Part shown: in pieces, positions 10,188 to 39,887 of the stretch
Layout of the letters: the number at the start of each line of letters is the position of its first letter
Position numbering within the stretch: the stretch's first letter is position 1
UHGV virus genome: UHGV-0135379
From: a virus
DNA: 44,739 nucleotides
Strand: one strand, 5' to 3'
Translations under genes and position numbers: made by a program
Notes under the pieces: model-generated
Seen by the model: only the letters and a program-made list of their open reading frames with translations
The model's database searches: none
What the model was told of the DNA's origin: nothing

Positions 10188-10673
10188 TCAACCTTTCACC
10201 GCGCGCCCGATAGCCTCAGCCTCCTGCCACGGTTTACCGTCGAACAGCGCCAGACGACCGGCGGTACGACGACGCAGTCCAAGTATCGGTTTGCCGTTCT
10301 GGTTGATGAACAGCGCCAGCTTAGCCCGCAGAGTCGTGACGTCACCAGAACGCAGCGCCTTACCTGTGCCCGTGGTAGCGGCAATCACGCCAGCGCCTGC
10401 GTTGTAGACCAGGTCACACACAGCGTCGAACTGTGCCTGTGTCAGTGAATGGTGCGCTGCCGCATCAACCGCAGCTACGGCTTTAGCCATATCGCGATTA
10501 AGTAACAGGAGGCCTTGTCCTGGAGTGATGGTCTGCCCCGCCTTAACATGCGGGCCATAGCTTCCATACCCAATAGTCAGGTACTTCTCATTCGGTGTAG
10601 CGCGATACGCGGTTCCGCGGAATCCCTCGAACGCGGCGGTGAATTTGATGCCATTGTTGCTAATGTTTCTCAT
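10188..10673 (-). CDS. Endolysin (T4/P22-type lysozyme-like muramidase)
   Basis: N-terminal ISNNGI..FEGFRG..Y motif typical of phage lysozymes; ATG overlaps HNH stop; terminator follows. Confidence 0.85.
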   Translation of the reverse strand: MRNISNNGIKFTAAFEGFRGTAYRATPNEKYLTIGYGSYGPHVKAGQTITPGQGLLLLNRDMAKAVAAVDAAAHHSLTQAQFDAVCDLVYNAGAGVIAATTGTGKALRSGDVTTLRAKLALFINQNGKPILGLRRRTAGRLALFDGKPWQEAEAIGRAVKG

Positions 10674-11203
10674 AAAGCACCTTCCCGTAATTTATGGTTC
10701 GCGAAAACCCCGTGTATCTTCTCTCTAGCTTCTTCGGCAACTAGCGCGGCTAGTTCTAGGTCCGCAAAGTATCCGTAAAAATACTTAATCTTATGTATTT
10801 TTAATTGAACGTACCATCCTCCTTGTTGCTTCTGCCACATAACGTTCTTAATACCGGATTTGCTGTCCTTTCTTGGCCCTTTGTTGCATCCGTTTTCGGA
10901 TTTGTTGGCTTCACGTAAATTACAGAATCTATTATCACGACCATCGCCGTTTATGTGGTCTATTAGGGAGTTGGGCCATTCCCCTGTCATGTATAGCCAA
11001 GCGAGACGATGCGCCAAGTACCGCTTCCCACCGAAGGCTATGGAGCGATAGCCTGCACAATGGTTGGCGCCAGCCTCACTTCCCGCCCGAGCATTGTGCA
11101 CACGTGTAGCTTTCCATGTAAAAACTCCGGTATCGGGGTCGTAGTGTAAAACCTCGCGCAGCTTATCTGCGGTAAGTCCATTATCTGAAATGTTTCGAGA
11201 CAC
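10670..11203 (-). CDS. HNH homing-type endonuclease (GTG start)
   Basis: LHYDPDTGVFTWK N-terminus and H-N-H/Cys cluster (DHINGDGRDNRFCNL); sits between holin genes and endolysin. Confidence 0.8.
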   Translation of the reverse strand: MSRNISDNGLTADKLREVLHYDPDTGVFTWKATRVHNARAGSEAGANHCAGYRSIAFGGKRYLAHRLAWLYMTGEWPNSLIDHINGDGRDNRFCNLREANKSENGCNKGPRKDSKSGIKNVMWQKQQGGWYVQLKIHKIKYFYGYFADLELAALVAEEAREKIHGVFANHKLREGAL

Positions 11204-21453: not shown

Positions 21454-23625
21454 ATGAGTTACCTGTTCTTAGACTTTGAAACATTCTCCGAAGCCGATTT
21501 AAAGAAAGTCGGCTCCTACGCTTACGCCGAACACCCGTCAACCGAAGTGCTAATCTGCACATATGCCTTTGATGACGAGCCTGTACAGGTATGGGATTGC
21601 ACCGACGGCAGCGACATGCCGGGAGATTTGCACCGCGCCTTGCGCCGCCTGGTTAAGCCAAACAGCCGCACCAAGATGGTGTGGCACAACGGCTCAATGT
21701 TCGATAGGCTCATCATGAAGCACTGCTGGGGTTTTGATATTCCCGTAAGCAACACCATTGATACGATGATTTGGGCGTTTCGTCACGCGCTGCCAGGTTC
21801 ACTGGATGCCTTGTGCGAAGTGTTGGGCGTATCCGCCGACAACGCGAAAGATAAACGCGGCAAGGCGCTGATTCAGCGTTTCTCTAAACCGACACCGAAG
21901 AACTACAAAATCAGACGCTATACCGCAGAAACACACCCGGACGAGTGGGCGCTGTTCATCAAGTACGCCGTGAGCGACATCACCGCGATGCGTGAAGTCT
22001 TCCATAAGCTGCCACGTTGGGGTAACTCCGAGTTCGAAGACCGTGTACTGGAACTTGACCAGTTAATAAATGACCGCGGGTTTAAGGTTGACGTTGCACT
22101 GGCAGAAGCCGCGATTGAAGCCGTGGAGAAGCACAAGGCGCAGTTACAGGAAGAAGCCCAACGAAAATACGGTGGCTCTCTTACTGGTAAGGACTTCCTG
22201 CCGATTCTGCGTGAACTTGCGCCAGCGCACCGTATCCACAACGCGCAGAAGTCAACGCTTAACGACCTGCTGGCGGATGAGGATTTACCCGACGACGCCC
22301 GCACAATTATAGAAATGCGCCTCGGGGCCGCGTCCACTGCGTCAACGAAATATAACCCGCTGCTGTTGGGTCGCTCGTCGGACGACCGCCGCCGTGGTTG
22401 CATCCAGTACGGTGGGGCCAAGCGTACGTTACGGTTCGCAGGTAAAGGCTTCCAACCACAGAACCTGGCGCGCGGGTACTATCACGATGATGAACTGGAT
22501 AAGGGCATTTCAGCGCTACTTAAGGGTCGTGCGCATCGCCGTTTCGACGTAGCCAAGCTAACGGCGTCGACGGTTCGTAGCTGTATTATCCCGGAAGCAG
22601 GGCATAAGTTTGTCGTAGCCGATTACTCTAACGTTGAAGGCCGTGGTTTGGCGTGGCTGGCTGGCGAAGACGATTTAATAGAAGTATTTGTAAACGGGGT
22701 TGATGTGTATAAGAAACTCGCATCAACCGTGTTCAACGTTAGTTATGACGACGTAACAAAGGACCAAAGACAAATAGCCAAAGCAATGGTTCTCGGACTG
22801 GGTTACGCGGGGGGTGTAGGGGCTTTCGTCACGTTTGCTAAAAACTTAGGGCTTGATTTGAACGATATGGCCCGTACTTTAGACGGGACTTTCCCTGACC
22901 ATATCTGGGCCGCTACCGCACGAGGATATGAATGGGCGCGTATTCAGGAAGCCAAGCGACCGCCACGTCCTGGTGAAAAAGATGACCGACCATCATATAT
23001 TCTTGATAAGAAAGTTTGGCGCACCTGTGACGCTTTAAAGCGCATGTACCGGGAAGCTAACCCAGCAATAGTCCAATTCTGGCGCGATATTGAAGATGCA
23101 GCTATGGCGGCTATCCGCAATCCGGGTAAAGAGTTCACCGCAGGGCCGCGCGGGGTTAAGTTTTCGCGTAACGTAGAGACAGATAACAACGGCAACAAAG
23201 TCGCTGGTTGGTGGTTGCGTATGACGCTGCCGTCGGGTCGTGTTATGTCTTATCCAGGCGTCGGGTTAAGCGTATCAAAAGAGACAGACGAAGACGGGAA
23301 GGTGTCTACTAACGTGCGCATCAAGTACCAGGGCGAAAATCAGCTAACCCGACAGTGGGGGTTCCAGTACACATATTCCGGTAAACTCGTGGAAAACTGT
23401 ACGCAGGCGCTGTGCCGTGATTTGCTGGCTAATGCACTGCTGAACGTAGAAGCAAACGGCTACCCTATTGTACTTCATGTACACGATGAACTGGTATGTG
23501 AAACTCCAGATACGCCGGAATACAACGTAGCTGAACTGGAGAAATTAATGTGTGCGTTGCCAGAGTGGGCAGAGGGCTTCCCTCTTGTAGCAGAAGGTAG
23601 CGAAATGTACAGATACGCCAAGTAG
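21454..23625 (+). CDS. Family A DNA polymerase with 3'-5' exonuclease domain
   Basis: Exo I motif FLDFETFS; polymerase motif B (K...YG) and motif C (VHDE). Confidence 0.9.
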   Translation: MSYLFLDFETFSEADLKKVGSYAYAEHPSTEVLICTYAFDDEPVQVWDCTDGSDMPGDLHRALRRLVKPNSRTKMVWHNGSMFDRLIMKHCWGFDIPVSNTIDTMIWAFRHALPGSLDALCEVLGVSADNAKDKRGKALIQRFSKPTPKNYKIRRYTAETHPDEWALFIKYAVSDITAMREVFHKLPRWGNSEFEDRVLELDQLINDRGFKVDVALAEAAIEAVEKHKAQLQEEAQRKYGGSLTGKDFLPILRELAPAHRIHNAQKSTLNDLLADEDLPDDARTIIEMRLGAASTASTKYNPLLLGRSSDDRRRGCIQYGGAKRTLRFAGKGFQPQNLARGYYHDDELDKGISALLKGRAHRRFDVAKLTASTVRSCIIPEAGHKFVVADYSNVEGRGLAWLAGEDDLIEVFVNGVDVYKKLASTVFNVSYDDVTKDQRQIAKAMVLGLGYAGGVGAFVTFAKNLGLDLNDMARTLDGTFPDHIWAATARGYEWARIQEAKRPPRPGEKDDRPSYILDKKVWRTCDALKRMYREANPAIVQFWRDIEDAAMAAIRNPGKEFTAGPRGVKFSRNVETDNNGNKVAGWWLRMTLPSGRVMSYPGVGLSVSKETDEDGKVSTNVRIKYQGENQLTRQWGFQYTYSGKLVENCTQALCRDLLANALLNVEANGYPIVLHVHDELVCETPDTPEYNVAELEKLMCALPEWAEGFPLVAEGSEMYRYAK

Positions 23626-23659
23626 TAGATTTAGGAAATACGTTGTAGAAAATGTAAAT

Positions 23660-23692
23660 ACCGATATAGTGGCTATGTCGGTATTTTTTTTT
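23660..23692 (+). terminator. Rho-independent terminator after the DNA polymerase gene
   Basis: About 10-bp stem followed by a T9 run. Confidence 0.65.
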
Positions 23693-23702
23693 GGAGTTAT
23701 TA

Positions 23703-24398
23703 ATGAAAAAGTGTTCAAGATGCGGCGAAGATAAACCGGCGACTACAGAGTATTTTTCAAAGTCAACGCGCCTCGGGCTGCAACGCTGGTGTAAAGAGTG
23801 TGTAAATGCTAACAGGAAGGAAAAGTATGACGAAAAACTTAAATTACAAGGTAAATCCAGACGAGAAAGCCCTTGGTATGTTTTCACTGGGAAGCCTGTT
23901 AAATGCAGAAAGTGTGGGGAGGTAAAACCTTTAACAGAGGAAAACTTCAGGAAAGGAAATAAAAGTAATGGCTCTCATATCAGGAAAGATTGCCGGGAGT
24001 GTCTCAACAAGCAACGCAGGGAACTGGTGAATAAGGACCAAAGGACGCGGGCGTACGCGCTTTTGTTAGGATACAAAAGAGCAGATTCAGGAAAAGGGCT
24101 TATCTGCGATTTAACACTGGAAAGCGTTATTAAACTAATATCACAGCCATGCCATTATTGCGGAAGCACTACAAAAGTCGGGGTAGACCGCATAGATAAT
24201 ACAAGCGGGCACATAGTATCTAACTGCGTTTCTTGTTGTCAGACATGTAATCTTACCAGAGGACACCGGTTTACATTCATTGAAATGGTTACGGAGATAG
24301 GTCCCGCCATTAAAAGAATAAAAGCGGCGAGAGAAGTTTCACATATACCGTCTTTTCCTAATAGGTGGCCTGAAGGAGAATGTAGAGATGCCAAGTAA
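23703..24398 (+). CDS. HNH endonuclease with N-terminal zinc-ribbon repeats
   Basis: Repeated C..C pairs and HNH-like core VDRIDNTSGH...NCVSCCQTCN; AT-rich; ATG with GGAG RBS (track ORF starts at a TTG at 23691). Confidence 0.7.
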   Translation: MKKCSRCGEDKPATTEYFSKSTRLGLQRWCKECVNANRKEKYDEKLKLQGKSRRESPWYVFTGKPVKCRKCGEVKPLTEENFRKGNKSNGSHIRKDCRECLNKQRRELVNKDQRTRAYALLLGYKRADSGKGLICDLTLESVIKLISQPCHYCGSTTKVGVDRIDNTSGHIVSNCVSCCQTCNLTRGHRFTFIEMVTEIGPAIKRIKAAREVSHIPSFPNRWPEGECRDAK

Positions 24399-24519
24399 AC
24401 TAAGTATCGCGGTGCTGGCGGGATTCGCCGCTGGTGTCTACTGTCACGAGGGTCAATACGGCATGATGGTCGCCGTATTGGGTATGCTAGTAGCAATTTA
24501 TTTGTGGGTGCTGGAATGA
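24388..24519 (+). CDS. Small hydrophobic peptide (43 aa)
   Basis: ATG with GAAGGAGAA RBS; coupled to the next ORF. Confidence 0.35.
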   Translation: MPSKLSIAVLAGFAAGVYCHEGQYGMMVAVLGMLVAIYLWVLE

Positions 24520-24605
24520 AAATTTACTGGTTATACGAAGAAGACTGCCGAATCTGTCCGCGCTGCGGGATTGAGCATACGAAACGTGAGGGGTGCGTAT
24601 TATGA
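24516..24605 (+). CDS. Tiny Cys-rich peptide (29 aa)
   Basis: ATGA coupling at both ends; C..C....C..C spacing. Confidence 0.25.
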   Translation: MKIYWLYEEDCRICPRCGIEHTKREGCVL

Positions 24606-24754
24606 CAATGTTAGTATTCTGGACCATAGTAACCATGCTCGCACTGTTACTCGGCGCGGGAATAGCTGCGATGTTCTGTTACGGCCTGTTCTTTAAGTTT
24701 GTTGGCGTTGCCGTTCTCGGAGGAGCGTTTATAACCTGGGTTCTGCGCTCATGA
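24602..24754 (+). CDS. Small membrane peptide (50 aa)
   Basis: Two hydrophobic helices; coupled to the VRR-NUC start. Confidence 0.35.
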   Translation: MTMLVFWTIVTMLALLLGAGIAAMFCYGLFFKFVGVAVLGGAFITWVLRS

Positions 24755-25035
24755 CCCCGGAAGGCAAGATTCAGAAATACGCAAAAGAGCGATTCGAGGC
24801 CATTGGTGGCCTCGTTCGTAAACTTTCCTACGAGGGGCGCTCCGGTGCTCCTGACCTGCTGGTAATTCTCCCCGGCGGCATCGTCTGGTTCGTCGAGGTT
24901 AAGAAAGACGAAAATACGAAGCCAGACCCACACCAGTTACGTGAGCATGAGCGGATGCGTAAACGCGGTGCAAATGTTTTTGTCGTCGGTTCGTTTAAAC
25001 AGGTTGACGACCTAATAGCGAACTATTATAGTTAG
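24751..25035 (+). CDS. VRR-NUC domain nuclease
   Basis: PD-(D/E)XK-type core GAPDLLVIL...FVEVK; 94 aa. Confidence 0.75.
   Translation: MTPEGKIQKYAKERFEAIGGLVRKLSYEGRSGAPDLLVILPGGIVWFVEVKKDENTKPDPHQLREHERMRKRGANVFVVGSFKQVDDLIANYYS
25004..25032 (+). promoter_or_regulatory. Promoter TTGACG-N17-TATAGT with AATAG-CGAA-CTATT operator; upstream of 25066 and the SNF2 helicase
   Basis: Same architecture as 17926 and 20678; overlaps the last codons of the VRR-NUC gene. Confidence 0.6.
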
Positions 25036-25065: not shown

Positions 25066-25260
25066 ATGAAACACGAATATGACCGCAAACCAGCACGTGA
25101 CATCGTACCGGGTGACATGATTTTCAGCGTTAAGACCCGTCGGCCTGTTGCCGTTGATACTGTGTTTGTAGAGTCGAACGGTAAACTGGTTATCGAGGAC
25201 GTAACAGGTAACGTTACGGCGTTCGGGCGCAAAGAGCTGGTGCTCTACGTTAAGGGTTGA
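25066..25260 (+). CDS. Hypothetical protein (64 aa)
   Basis: ATG with AAGGA RBS after promoter 25004-25032. Confidence 0.5.
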   Translation: MKHEYDRKPARDIVPGDMIFSVKTRRPVAVDTVFVESNGKLVIEDVTGNVTAFGRKELVLYVKG

Positions 25261-25262
25261 GT

Positions 25263-26687
25263 ATGTCTAAATTTATCCGTCGAGAGTACCAGAAGCTCAT
25301 GACCTCGTTCATGCTGCAACACCCGCGCTGTAATATCTGGTGCGGAATGGGGGGAGGTAAAACCTCCTCCACTATGTGGGTGCTCAACCGCCTGTTCCGC
25401 AACGGGCAGCTTACAGAAGAGGACCGCGTGTTAATCCTCGCCCCGTTGCGCGTTGCGTCCGGTACATGGCCTGCAGAACAAGAGAAATGGAAATTCCCTT
25501 GTCTGCGCGTCGTAGATGCAACCGGTTCAGAAAAGCGCCGCATCGCAGCGCTGGAGTCTGATGCTAACGTGGTGTGCACTAACTACGAAGTTATCGAGTG
25601 GCTGATTGACTACTACGGCAAAGACGACTGGCCTTTTACCGTTATCGTTGCCGATGAAAGCACGAAGCTTAAATCGTTCCGCAGCCGTTCAGGTGGTAGC
25701 AAGAGGGCGAAGGCGCTTAGCAAGGTTGCGTTCGGCAAGGTTAAGCGTTTCATCAACCTTACGGGTACACCATCACCAAACGGCCTCAAAGACCTGTGGG
25801 GGCAGAACTGGTTTATCGACGCTGGCGAGCGCCTCGGTTCTTCGTACACAGCGTTCACTGACCGCTGGTTTAACTCGGTACAGAAAGGCAAATCGGCTAT
25901 GGCACGTGAATATCACGCACGCCCGGGTGCAGATAATGAGATTCATCAGAAGATGAAAGACATCAGCCTGACCATAGACCCCGCCGAATGGTTCGGTTGT
26001 GAAGCGCCGATTATTGTACCGGTCGAAATCGACCTGCCGAAGAAAGCGCGTCAGGCGTACATTGATATGGAGGAGAAGTTATTTGCGGAACTGGAGAGCG
26101 GGGAAGTTGAAGCGGCTAACGCCGCGGCGAAGACGTCGAAGTGCTTGCAAATTGCATCCGGTGCTGTGTATGTGTCAGGACCAGACGGCGAAGCGACCAA
26201 AGACTGGGAGAAAGTGCACGACACGAAACTGGATGCGCTTGAGTCAATTGTCGAGGAGTTACAGGGCGCGCCGCTGCTTGTAGCCTATCAGTTTAAGCAC
26301 GAACTGGAGCGCATCCTTAAGCGATTCCCGCAGGCGCAGGCATTTGCTAAAGGCGCTAAAGGTAATAAGCAGATGGAAGCGTGGAACCGCGGGGAAATCG
26401 AAATCTTATGCGTGCATCCAGCGTCAGCCGGTCATGGTTTGAATTTACAGGACGGCGGGCATCATCTGGCATTCATCTCGCAAGGCTGGAACCTTGAGCA
26501 CTATTTGCAGGTTGTTGAGCGCATAGGCCCAGTCCGCCAGAAACAGGCGGGTCACGAGCGCCCGGTGTTCCTTTATCACATCGTTGCTAAAGACACTCTG
26601 GACGAGGTTGTCGCCGCGCGTACCGACGAGAAGAAATCGGTACAGGAAGAGTTGCTTAATTACATGAAGAGACGAGGTAAGAAATGA
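25263..26687 (+). CDS. SNF2-family (DEAD/DEAH-like) helicase
   Basis: Motifs MGGGKT, ADESTKLK, NLTGTP; ATG at 25263 (track ORF starts at a TTG at 25257). Confidence 0.85.
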   Translation: MSKFIRREYQKLMTSFMLQHPRCNIWCGMGGGKTSSTMWVLNRLFRNGQLTEEDRVLILAPLRVASGTWPAEQEKWKFPCLRVVDATGSEKRRIAALESDANVVCTNYEVIEWLIDYYGKDDWPFTVIVADESTKLKSFRSRSGGSKRAKALSKVAFGKVKRFINLTGTPSPNGLKDLWGQNWFIDAGERLGSSYTAFTDRWFNSVQKGKSAMAREYHARPGADNEIHQKMKDISLTIDPAEWFGCEAPIIVPVEIDLPKKARQAYIDMEEKLFAELESGEVEAANAAAKTSKCLQIASGAVYVSGPDGEATKDWEKVHDTKLDALESIVEELQGAPLLVAYQFKHELERILKRFPQAQAFAKGAKGNKQMEAWNRGEIEILCVHPASAGHGLNLQDGGHHLAFISQGWNLEHYLQVVERIGPVRQKQAGHERPVFLYHIVAKDTLDEVVAARTDEKKSVQEELLNYMKRRGKK

Positions 26688-27199
26688 TGGATTTCGAAGA
26701 GTTTCTACTTAAAGCTCATCTGCTGGCGCGTGGGTTTGACGCTGACCGTCTCCAGGTAGTCTTAGCCCCTGGAGTAGCTACGTTTTACCTGTGGGGGTTT
26801 GACGGTAGGCTTCGCGGATACCAGCATTACAAACCACATGCCGAAAAGAACTGTAAAAACCCTAAAGACGCGCGGTACTTTACCAGAACAACAAGGCCGT
26901 GTTTATGGGGGCTTGAGTATTTGCCGGAAAGCGGGGTGGTATTTGTTACCGAAAGCATATTCAAAGCCGTAGCCTTGATGAATTGCGGGTTCAATGCTGT
27001 AAGCGCACTGGGGTCAAATATATCAACAGACCTACGGCAGCAAATGTCACTTTTGCCGTATGACTGGGTGTGCGCTGGCGACAATGATAAAGCTGGATTA
27101 AAGTTCAGCAAAACATTCACCAGAGGATTTGTATCTAACGACCTTGATGAACTTTGTGAAGAAGAAATAACGTATCTTGCGAGGAAATTTACCAGATGA
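26684..27199 (+). CDS. TOPRIM-domain protein (primase-like)
   Basis: Conserved Glu (VFVTES) and DxD (AGDND) typical of TOPRIM. Confidence 0.5.
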   Translation: MMDFEEFLLKAHLLARGFDADRLQVVLAPGVATFYLWGFDGRLRGYQHYKPHAEKNCKNPKDARYFTRTTRPCLWGLEYLPESGVVFVTESIFKAVALMNCGFNAVSALGSNISTDLRQQMSLLPYDWVCAGDNDKAGLKFSKTFTRGFVSNDLDELCEEEITYLARKFTR

Positions 27200-37309: not shown

Positions 37310-37416
37310 TCTTTAATCCTTTGGTTAAGAGGTTACTGGTTAAAGGAAATGCGCCAGACGGGAACCACCCGCTTTTCGTGTGCGACACTAGGCGCAAAAT
37401 TATTCTAACATACTAC

Positions 37417-37717: not shown

Positions 37718-38848
37718 ATGGCCCGGAAGAAAATAACCGACGAACAGTTACAGGAAGAATTGAACGCCGGAATGAAGAATGTAGACATCGCCCGTAAATA
37801 CGGCATCTCAGACCGCGTAATTCGTATCCGTAAAGCGAAGCTGGCTAAGAAAGGTGTAGGTCACGGACGTGATGTTAGCCACCTTGTCCCGGACGGCTAT
37901 AAGATTAAAGGAACGTCGTCACTGGTGGATGAGTTCGGCAACACTAAGTTGCAATGGGTTAAGACCGACACTGACGCCGAACGTCAGGTTGAATTGATGA
38001 AAGCCGTGATCGAAGGCATGAAATCGGAGATTACGCCCGTTGCACCTGTTAAAGCCGTTCGTGCCAAACGGGACGATAAGCTGCTCAATCTTTACACTGT
38101 ATCCGATTTCCATCTCGGTATGCTGGCCTGGGCCGACGAGAGCGGCGACGACTGGGACATGAAGATTGCGGAAGACCTGTTCTCTCGTTGGTTCGATGCA
38201 GCATTCCAGAAAGCACCGGATGCCGGTACTGGGGTTATCAATCTTCTTGGCGACTTAGCGCACTTCGATAGTCTTGATGCCGTTACGCCCGCAAGCGGTC
38301 ATGTCCTTGACGCTGACACGCGCTATCAGAAACTGGTCCGTTACATGATTCGTATGGTCCGCCGTGTCGTTGATATGGCGTTGGTTAAGCATAAAAATGT
38401 TCGCTTGCTTATCGTGCAAGGGAATCACGACGAATCGGGTATGATTTGGTTGGCTGAGATGTTCAGTACGCTGTACGACAATGAGCCGCGCGTGTTCGTC
38501 GATACGTCGCCGGATGTTTACAAGATGGTGCAACACGGCAAAACGACGCTGTTCTTCCATCACGGGCATAAAGCACGATTCGACGCTATCGAACCGGTTA
38601 TGATTGCCAAGTTCCGTAAAGCGTTCGGCGAGAGTGTTTACAGCTACGCCCACGTAGGCCATCTGCACCACCAGAAGATTGTAGAAAGCCGTAACATGAT
38701 TGTTGAGCAACACCGCACCTTAGCGGCTAAAGACGCCTACGCCTCTCGCGGCGGATGGATGTCGGGCCGCAGTGCAAATGTAATTACTTATAGCGCCGAA
38801 TATGGCGAGGTCGCACGTTTAACTATTTCACCGGAGATGCTGGGATGA
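37718..38848 (+). CDS. Calcineurin-like metallophosphoesterase with N-terminal HTH-like domain
   Basis: Motifs DFHLG, GDLAHFD, QGNHDE, HHGH, GHLHH; ATG with GAGGAAG RBS. Confidence 0.75.
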   Translation: MARKKITDEQLQEELNAGMKNVDIARKYGISDRVIRIRKAKLAKKGVGHGRDVSHLVPDGYKIKGTSSLVDEFGNTKLQWVKTDTDAERQVELMKAVIEGMKSEITPVAPVKAVRAKRDDKLLNLYTVSDFHLGMLAWADESGDDWDMKIAEDLFSRWFDAAFQKAPDAGTGVINLLGDLAHFDSLDAVTPASGHVLDADTRYQKLVRYMIRMVRRVVDMALVKHKNVRLLIVQGNHDESGMIWLAEMFSTLYDNEPRVFVDTSPDVYKMVQHGKTTLFFHHGHKARFDAIEPVMIAKFRKAFGESVYSYAHVGHLHHQKIVESRNMIVEQHRTLAAKDAYASRGGWMSGRSANVITYSAEYGEVARLTISPEMLG

Positions 38849-39333
38849 AAGATATTGTAATTTTCGATTTAGACGGGACATTGGCCGACGGTACCCATCG
38901 CTTACACCTGTTACCAAAAGATAACTACGGAGAAACGTGGGCGTGGAAGCCATTTAACATGGCCTGCAAAGATGACGCTCCGATATACGACAATATCCAT
39001 TTGTGTAGCGTACTGTGGCATTCCGGACTTACTATAATTATCCTTACCGGGCGAAGTGATGACGCTGAGGAGGAGACTCGCGAATGGTTACGAGAGAATA
39101 ACGTTAGGTTTGACACGCTAATCATGCGCAGCAAACACGACAACAGAAAAGACATCGTAATTAAAGAAGAGGTGTTGCGTGCTTTCGGACTGGAAAGAAT
39201 CTTGTGTGCGTTCGACGACTCTCCAGCGGTAATAAAGCATTTCCGTGACCTCGGCATAACCGCACACGCAGTTACCGAATACGACTGTAACGGGAACTCT
39301 ACACACTTAAAACCACACGGGAGCGATAAATAA
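38845..39333 (+). CDS. HAD-superfamily phosphatase resembling the 3'-phosphatase domain of T4 polynucleotide kinase-phosphatase
   Basis: HAD motifs FDLDGTL, ILTGRS, RKDIVIKEE, FDDSP in the same order and spacing as remembered for T4 Pnkp. Confidence 0.75.
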   Translation: MKDIVIFDLDGTLADGTHRLHLLPKDNYGETWAWKPFNMACKDDAPIYDNIHLCSVLWHSGLTIIILTGRSDDAEEETREWLRENNVRFDTLIMRSKHDNRKDIVIKEEVLRAFGLERILCAFDDSPAVIKHFRDLGITAHAVTEYDCNGNSTHLKPHGSDK

Positions 39334-39887
39334 TGGCTAAGGTAATTATTCTTAATGGCCCTGCGGGTTGCGGGAAAGACACGCTTGCTATGGCGCTGGT
39401 AGAAATGGGCTTTGCGAAAGGAACTACCAGTTTCAAGAATCCAATGTTCAATATTGCTTTGGCAGCGTTAGGCCAGGATGCTTACCACGAATTTCTCGAC
39501 GGCTACGACGACCGGGCGCGGAAAGAAAAACCCGAGGGTTTTCTTAATGGGTTGTCCCGCCGCCGGTTAATGATTGCCATTTCTGAGCAATTCATTAAAC
39601 CGGTATTCGGCGATGATTATTTCGGTAAGTATCTTGCTGAAAACTTGCCTGACGGCGACGAAGTTTTTGTAGTGTCCGATGGTGGATTCGCCAGTGAAGT
39701 TGCCCCTATCGTCGCCGCGGGGCATGACGTGCGAATCGTCCGCCTCCATCGTGACGGCTATACGTTCATCTGCGATAGCCGTGGCTATCTGTACGATGTT
39801 AGTGGTGTAAAAGATTACGACACCTACATCATACCGGGTGACGTTAAATCGAACGTTATAGACATTGCTTTAAAATTAGGTTTGTAA
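39333..39887 (+). CDS. P-loop kinase resembling T4 gp1 deoxynucleoside monophosphate kinase
   Basis: Walker A GPAGCGKDT and RRRLM motif; ATG overlaps HAD gene stop (TAATG); terminator follows. Confidence 0.7.
   Translation: MAKVIILNGPAGCGKDTLAMALVEMGFAKGTTSFKNPMFNIALAALGQDAYHEFLDGYDDRARKEKPEGFLNGLSRRRLMIAISEQFIKPVFGDDYFGKYLAENLPDGDEVFVVSDGGFASEVAPIVAAGHDVRIVRLHRDGYTFICDSRGYLYDVSGVKDYDTYIIPGDVKSNVIDIALKLGL

Follow-up and report, generated by a model that had tools for sequence, protein, structure and literature searches.

A PacI-like nuclease gene at the polymerase end of a Kagunavirus-like coliphage genome as a probable free-standing homing endonuclease cassette

How can a nuclease gene come to lie at a junction where, in related phages, two genes overlap, and leave both of them intact? 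The question is raised by the virus genome UHGV-0135379 (44,739 nucleotides; this whole stretch of DNA is called the window below), in which a gene at 23703-24398 on the + strand follows the DNA polymerase gene and encodes a protein of 231 amino acids that is assigned to the PacI-like His-Me finger endonucleases by sequence, family profile and structure model. The genome, complete and circularly permuted, is that of a Kagunavirus-like coliphage (Guernseyvirinae); 444 Guernseyvirinae records match it over the region examined, and phage Bas76 (PQ850632.1) can be aligned with it from end to end, at an identity of about 85-98% interrupted by mosaic gaps. The evidence set out here makes it probable that the gene belongs to a free-standing homing endonuclease cassette which has settled at the end of the polymerase gene. 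Such a PacI-type cassette is a further case of an already described class, that of PacI-like phage genes and of nucleases at recombination boundaries.

In Bas76, ST20, Shashou and K1H, where the junction is empty, the polymerase gene overlaps a conserved open reading frame (ORF) of 43 amino acids by 11 nt, and there is no spacer between them. In the window the nuclease ORF stands between these two genes as a separate ORF with its own ribosome-binding site (RBS), and it is the nuclease stop codon that is overlapped by 11 nt by the 43-amino-acid ORF (24388-24519; this ORF, the cassette described below and the patch to its left are on the + strand). The nuclease ORF is open from 23691, and its real start is the ATG at 23703, with GGAG (23693-23696) six nt upstream, which agrees with the N-termini of the homologues (M-K-x-C). 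At 24390-24401 stands GCCAAGTAAACT, which can be aligned with the region of the polymerase stop codon in the empty genomes; therefore the nuclease ORF stops on the polymerase stop codon of these genomes, in the same frame. Moreover, the tail of the nuclease, PEGECRDAK*, is a decayed copy of the polymerase end AEGSEMYRYAK*, the two forming an imperfect direct repeat. Its left copy (23593-23625), consisting of the last 10 codons and the stop codon (EGSEMYRYAK*), is the functional polymerase end; it keeps the polymerase intact, and its internal ATG is lost. The right copy (24372-24398) is a decayed relic with 6 nt deleted, which gives the nuclease gene its last 9 codons and its stop codon and also provides the AAGGAG RBS and the ATG (24388) of the 43-amino-acid ORF. 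The C-terminal tail must have been gained at this site, because the nuclease relatives in other phages end differently (..FPNRYDTGETK*). The whole cassette extends over 824 bp (23578-24401) and is made up of the polymerase 3' end, a spacer, a hairpin, the nuclease gene and the polymerase-end relic. Comparison with hundreds of relatives shows it to be an insertion, with the two imperfectly matching copies of the polymerase 3' end on either side; the duplicated overlap is how the insertion spared the two overlapping genes. The locus is a clean natural example of a free-standing nuclease gene entering two overlapping essential genes without breaking either.

The preliminary description of the locus had taken the presence of two different nuclease genes in the window, this one and the HNH gene at 10670-11203, as a sign of intron- or homing-type traffic. 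The second half of this view is supported, since both genes are free-standing and both are insertions relative to Bas76. The first half is not: the Rfam scan of the window found no intron, and the lengths of the polymerase and helicase genes match those of the relatives, so that the involvement of an intron or intein was rejected. The gene at 10670-11203, on the - strand, matches the Pfam family HNH_3 (E=2.5e-14) and lies between the genes for the endolysin and the holin, a pair that overlaps in Bas76. There is no similarity between its product and the nuclease encoded at 23703-24398, and the two are indeed unrelated, as had been proposed.

The distribution of the nuclease gene is that of a rare and mobile element. 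A tblastn search of the Guernseyvirinae records found four carriers, out of about 450 related phages in the database, at an amino acid identity of at least 99%, namely KMB35, Bas72, Bas73 and Bas74, and the next matches are at most 50% identical and belong to other genera. About 99% of the relatives lack the gene, and the comparison of presence and absence suggested in the preliminary description, with four carriers versus 218 records in which the junction of the polymerase gene and the small ORF is uninterrupted, shows that it is not strictly conserved. Between the window and the four carriers the cassette has only 0-3 differences in 824 bp (identity of at least 99.6%), whereas the flanks are 77-90% identical; the 100-200 bp on either side have diverged from the carriers by 12-23%, mostly at third codon positions. 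Because the background divergence is about 12%, the near identity of the 824-bp block goes beyond what chance or purifying selection would leave. Vertical inheritance combined with strong purifying selection was rejected for the reason that the synonymous sites are identical too, while the neighbouring codons differ at their third positions. A near-identical block in diverged backgrounds shows that the cassette has moved recently among kagunaviruses.

The comparison with Bas76 gives a view of the event itself. There are two mismatches in 22600-23399, 31 in 23400-23577, then the cassette, and again two in 24402-24595. The 178-bp patch of foreign polymerase sequence at 23400-23577, in which the mismatches fall mostly at third positions, is a putative co-conversion tract. 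The best phage in the database is 86.6% identical to it and all four carriers differ from it; both XY2 and the known carriers were rejected as its source by sequence comparison. The simplest reading would be that one gene-conversion event brought the cassette together with about 180 bp of the polymerase gene of an unsampled donor into a Bas76-like genome. In the case of KMB35, the sequence is Bas76-like right up to the edge of the cassette, and the lengths of the conversion tracts thus differ between events, because KMB35 has no flanking patch and the window has one of 178 bp. The locus illustrates how identity cliffs and co-conversion patches arise around such a gene in small siphophage genomes.

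Four other settings also have homologues of the nuclease gene, in each case within the same replication module and directly 3' of a polymerase gene of family A. The Dhillonvirus homologue (for example in JLBYU60) has 49% amino acid identity and is present in 26 of the 158 Dhillonvirus records (16%), and three metagenomic phages (L013, L014 and L017) have homologues of 60-64% identity. The nuclease gene lies about 10-13 GC points under the adjacent polymerase gene in these three, and only 2 points under it in JLBYU60. In addition, this junction is the site of unrelated HNH_3 genes in XY2, VIPECOMC04, VIPECOTPH05A and Salmonella phage vB_STM-ZS. The polymerase-end allele of the cassette, GGTAGCGAAATGTACAGATAyGC (SEMYRYAK), is shared with XY2 (L010, 915-947), and it occurs only in genomes which have a nuclease gene at the junction, be it PacI-like or HNH_3; it was not found in the empty genomes of the phage collection, in which the best contiguous match was 89.8%. 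Substitutions which lie by the insertion site and are confined to nuclease-bearing genomes are what one would expect of a cleavage-resistant variant of the target, and they also suggest that, at a site already immunised, one of the two nuclease genes took the place of the other. The polymerase end may be a common landing pad, at which unrelated nucleases are swapped and inherit the pre-immunised SEMYRYAK allele.

The cassette also contains conserved sequence that does not code for the nuclease. A junction motif of 36 nt (23613-23648), comprising the last polymerase codons, TAG TAG and ATTTAGGAAATACGTTGTAG, is 86% identical to its counterpart in each of the three metagenomic phages, which are distant lineages with proteins of only about 60% identity; the adjacent coding sequence is 60-68% identical. 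It holds a repeat, GTAGATTyrG, spaced by about 20 nt, and occurs once in the window; a promoter, an operator, a binding site and an insulating terminator are all candidates for its role. It is followed by a hairpin and a run of nine T residues (23656-23692) directly upstream of the nuclease RBS. The hairpin (23656-23686) has a stem of 14 bp and a loop of 3 nt, a predicted folding free energy of -17.7 kcal/mol and a z-score of -4.7, and is terminator-like. The three metagenomic phages have a hairpin at the same place with another stem sequence; RNAalifold recovers one in each of the four lineages, the register of the window being different, so that the covariation counts are weak. The preliminary description had read this structure as the terminator of the polymerase gene. 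The hairpin and its T run exist, but they are part of the mobile cassette and are absent from the junction of the empty relatives; because the two genes overlap there without a spacer, the hairpin belongs to the insert and is not an ancestral polymerase terminator. A sigma-70 scan of the + strand gave no promoter for the nuclease gene above background, and a weak TTGTAG-16-TATAGT overlapping the hairpin, spotted by eye, is not convincing as one. The PacI-like cassette may travel with its own cis-element, composed of the 36-nt motif and the hairpin, as an operator or as an insulating promoter/terminator unit.

On the homing interpretation, the protein would cut nuclease-less genomes during co-infection, at or near the junction of the polymerase 3' end and the small ORF, and the break would be repaired from the carrier genome, by which the cassette and flanks of variable length would be copied (gene conversion, marker exclusion). 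The carriers would be immune, as their target would be split by the insert and their adjacent polymerase codons would be those of the diverged allele. The strongest competitor, which we nevertheless consider unlikely, is an accessory gene that is spread by ordinary homologous recombination and kept for some other fitness function, such as the degradation of host or competitor-phage DNA, superinfection exclusion or the countering of a host defence. The identity cliff and the mosaic flanks, which show recombination only, would suit it, as would the general mosaicism of kagunavirus genomes seen in the comparison with Bas76, the label 'Lar-like restriction alleviation' of the PHROG neighbour family of the zinc-ribbon part, and the fact that PacI itself is a restriction enzyme. 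However, the strict placement directly after polA in four lineages and the repeated entry of unrelated HNH genes at the junction are what homing driven by a target site predicts and are not expected of a free accessory gene, the nuclease-linked polymerase-end allele fits target immunity, and the gene is found at low frequency, in about 1% of Guernseyvirinae and 16% of Dhillonvirus records.

What kind of nuclease would do the cutting is answered by the protein. The repeated pairs of cysteines noticed in the preliminary description are real: residues 3-43 and 67-109 are homologous CxxC...CxxC ribbons, with 44% identity over 41 amino acids (E=2e-9). Zinc ribbon 1 (23712-23801; C4, C7, C30 and C33, followed by a helix) is present only in the longer family members. 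Zinc ribbon 2 (23904-24002; C68, C71, C97 and C100) has cysteines with a conservation of at least 90% across the family, and it shares homology with ribbon 1 as well as with the Cys4 motif at the N-terminus of PacI. The predicted zinc-bound beta-beta-alpha-metal core (24150-24260) has the layout C150-x2-C153 ... D162 R163 ... H170 ... N174 ... C179-x2-C182-N183, with a core strand motif V-D-R-I-D. The two Cys4 sites of the PacI group are conserved (C68/C71/C97/C100 and C150/C153/C179/C182), and C4/C7/C30/C33 is an extra third site; the product would accordingly be a protein with three zinc sites, predicted to combine tandem ribbons with a PacI-like core and keeping every family-invariant residue. 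The AlphaFold2 model has a mean predicted local distance difference test score of 91.4 and is confident over residues 1-218; only residues 219-231, the tail encoded by the polymerase-end relic, are disordered in it. Its core, with strands at 159-163 and 175-179 and a helix at 180-186, is the beta-beta-alpha-metal fold. An 'HNH core', as first proposed, is therefore present at the level of the superfamily, by the His-Me fold of the model, and absent in its canonical form: there is no canonical H-N-H, D-R stands in place of D-H, and no Pfam HNH model matches.

The family was assembled by an exhaustive homologue search, which gave 15,719 cluster representatives at E<=1e-3 (a word-indexed search had given 5 matches only), and the conservation was read from an alignment of 47 members. 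In this alignment C150, C153, D162, R163, N174, C179, C182 and N183 are invariant, and Y152, D165, N166, G169 and H170 are nearly so; the position of the canonical catalytic histidine is taken by R163, with arginine in 47 of 47 members. A Pfam scan of the protein and its 47 relatives gave no significant HNH model, only sub-threshold cysteine-rich noise, and PF02945 (Endonuclease_7) had no match at E<=1 for the protein and none among the relatives; the V-D-R-I-D motif also departs from the catalytic strand H-x-D-H of that family. Neither a Pfam HNH family nor 'endonuclease VII' was therefore accepted as the family of the protein. The latter name comes from PHROGs, where the protein falls in phrog_1035, 'endonuclease VII' (E=1.3e-29), and is also the annotation of this gene in the Bas72-74 records; the label has no backing from the Endonuclease_7 profile. 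The relation to PacI emerges when the family as a whole is considered. A search of the Protein Data Bank (PDB) with the single sequence was only marginal (PacI at E=0.14), and the family profile run against the solved structures with hmmsearch placed PacI best, at E=9.9e-13. Among the Foldseek matches (PacI, Gme HNH, Cas9 HNH and Hpy99I), PacI is the sole significant PDB match to the fold (E=4.5e-5, probability 1.00, template modelling score of 0.55 normalised to the target). Hpy99I, the one structure of the Endonuclease_7 family among the matches, is non-significant at E=0.26, and T4 endonuclease VII is not among the PDB matches. Many phage and giant-virus proteins are among the viral structure matches of the model; this agrees with the PacI group, His-Me finger group 20, being described as predominantly viral and including giant-virus members (PMC5714182).

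Profile alignment sets the core against GVDRSDSFEGYSPQN...CFICN of PacI. The invariant D162 and N183 align with the Asp and Asn of the PacI core, and R163 after the Asp is common to PacI too; H170 stands opposite the sole Tyr that PacI has in its omega-loop stretch (G-H instead of G-Y). Over 90% of the sampled family have the omega-loop histidine, and one sampled member (P0090) has Tyr there. PacI has no canonical His, and its omega-loop Tyr has been placed as base or nucleophile (PMC5714182, PMC4081073), its metal being bound by one Asp and one Asn (PMC4081073). By analogy, D162 and N183 are taken as the metal ligands, and the active site appears to be of the PacI type with a relocated histidine. 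In catalysis, D162 and N183 would hold the metal, H170 would act as general base from the omega loop, and R163 would stand in for the canonical His. The enzyme may be a distinct catalytic variant with an omega-loop His base, in which the tandem ribbons read a long asymmetric site; an enzyme that cuts long sites by means of modular zinc ribbons could, if true, be of interest to enzyme engineers. That this variant, the landing pad with its pre-immunised allele and the conserved cis-element all hold jointly is a tentative proposal, which we regard as doubtful rather than expected.

R.PacI (PDB 3ldy and 3m7k; group 20, Jablonska et al. 2017) is the closest solved relative by both profile and fold. 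The two enzymes share the 'G-V/L-D-R-x-D' strand with Arg in the canonical His position, and the metal-ligand Asp and Asn are conserved, at a sequence identity of about 19%. R.PacI has one zinc ribbon, whereas the phage protein has two in tandem and a longer helical linker; the omega loop carries the base or nucleophile Tyr in R.PacI and H170, with a putative role, in the phage protein. Furthermore, R.PacI is a chromosomal homodimer that cuts an 8-bp palindrome, while the phage gene is a mobile cassette. Pfam HNH models fail to see the very large PacI-like family (over 15,000 sequence clusters), and phage records, those of the BASEL reference collection (Bas72-74) among them, mislabel its members as 'endonuclease VII' or 'restriction endonuclease'.

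Two other explanations concern the protein. A decaying or catalytically dead homing endonuclease, which would only bind DNA and hitch-hike or possibly act as a regulator through the upstream motif, would account for the replacement of the canonical catalytic His by Arg, for the C-terminal tail replaced by read-through into the polymerase relic and predicted to be disordered, for the conserved 36-nt motif, and for the remnant nuclease ORFs nearby in relatives. It is very unlikely, as D-R is invariant across the family of more than 15,000 clusters and is present in active PacI, none of the invariant residues or of the 12 zinc cysteines has been lost, and the ORF keeps its full length, with 99-100% conservation in the carriers and a model that is confident over residues 1-218. 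Least probable of all is a structure-specific recombination or repair nuclease of the replication module, that is, an endonuclease VII-type resolvase, for which the PHROG label, the annotation of Bas72-74 and the neighbouring polymerase, VRR-NUC and helicase genes would speak, but which is opposed by the missing Pfam Endonuclease_7 and HNH matches, by PacI as best structure match with Hpy99I non-significant, by a VRR-NUC resolvase already encoded at 24751-25035, and by the fact that about 99% of the close relatives replicate without the gene.

Several points weigh against the free-standing homing endonuclease cassette as well. The identity block and the flanking patch prove recent recombination and not a nuclease-made break as its driver. 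The cutting of empty alleles and the self-driven copying are deduced from the fold, the invariant residues, the fidelity to the site, the invasion of the junction and the allele. In the three metagenomic phages the nuclease has diverged from that of the window like the polymerase (60-64% versus 57-63% amino acid identity), and this similar divergence would also fit a long history of vertical co-inheritance in these phages. As the canonical general-base His is missing, activity hangs on H170 as its putative substitute. A strong terminator-like hairpin inside an operon, with genes downstream of it, is a further difficulty. Moreover, in the one published test of a PacI-like phage HNH, H1-93 of Skunavirus, the enzymes reported to reduce plaquing are two others, of the I-HmuI-like type (PMC12724721). 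A direct approach to the question is at hand in Bas76, which is empty, and the carriers Bas72-74, which together form an isogenic-like, ready system for studying homing in a coliphage other than T4.

The cassette has parallels in known systems. The free-standing genes of the T-even phages (segA-G, mobA-E and hef/segH) are likewise intergenic beside a conserved essential gene and patchy among close relatives, and likewise show signatures of flanking co-conversion and marker exclusion and nucleases replacing one another at one locus (PMC2790892, PMC2988022). Upstream hairpins, as in the case of mobE, are thought to limit the expression of the T-even free-standing nuclease genes. Nuclease genes at phage recombination boundaries are a known pattern (PMC10448857, PMC2988022). 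In contrast, the Seg proteins are GIY-YIG enzymes and the Mob proteins canonical HNH enzymes with D-H, whereas the phage protein is a D-R, PacI-like one; the T-even hosts are large myoviruses with, in several cases, experimentally shown cleavage sites and homing, while homing of the Kagunavirus cassette is putative. A variable free-standing class of PacI-like HNH genes has already been described in lactococcal Skunavirus phages; these genes were classed as PacI-like from profile comparisons and are likewise rare, variably present and confined to one place of insertion (PMC12724721). They belong to phages of another host phylum and lie in the morphogenesis module, at a site termed H1. The HNH_3/AP2-type genes (PF13392; the gene at 10670-11203, gp22 of XY2 and gp40 of Shashou) are likewise free-standing and variable, and in XY2-type phages they occupy the same junction at the polymerase 3' end; they differ in having the canonical D-H base, no zinc ribbons and an AP2 DNA-binding module, and they have no detectable similarity to the PacI-like gene.

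The base composition agrees with the preliminary description of an AT-rich gene after the polymerase gene. The computed profile gives a GC content of 43.0% for the nuclease gene against a window mean of 50.2% (standard deviation of 3.2% over windows of equal size), which places it within the lowest 2.5% of equal-sized windows of the genome; 23591-24286 is the joint genome minimum at 41.4%. GC at third codon positions is 40% in the nuclease gene versus 56% in the polymerase gene. The AT-richness is not unique, as five further patches of the window have a GC content of 41-43%, and low GC alone is suggestive of a foreign origin of the nuclease gene, not decisive.

Some further differences between the window and its relatives were observed. 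Between an ORF of 64 amino acids and the SNF2 helicase gene, Bas72-76, KMB35 and K1H have a gene for a DNA (cytosine) methyltransferase, which the window lacks (25245-25280). A Toprim_2-like ORF of 171 amino acids directly after the helicase gene (26684-27199, + strand) has no counterpart in Bas76. Two other ORFs absent from Bas76 lie at 38845-39887 on the + strand; the second, of 184 amino acids, has a P-loop-like N-terminus and no Pfam match, and the first, of 162 amino acids, resembles a HAD/PNKP phosphatase (E=3e-20). The sole Rfam family in the window is a marginal int-alpA RNA at 37334-37398 on the - strand, with 36.6 bits against a gathering score of 35.8. Relatives have other mobile elements in the module that holds the nuclease gene: Shashou (L005) has an HNH_3-AP2 gene before the VRR-NUC gene (1730-2221) and an intein in the helicase (from 2801). 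At the place of this HNH_3-AP2 gene, KMB35 and Bas72 (L006 and L007, 3814-3912) have an ORF of 99 nt that is annotated as HNH and is probably a remnant, and several Jerseyvirus records have intein-containing polymerases.

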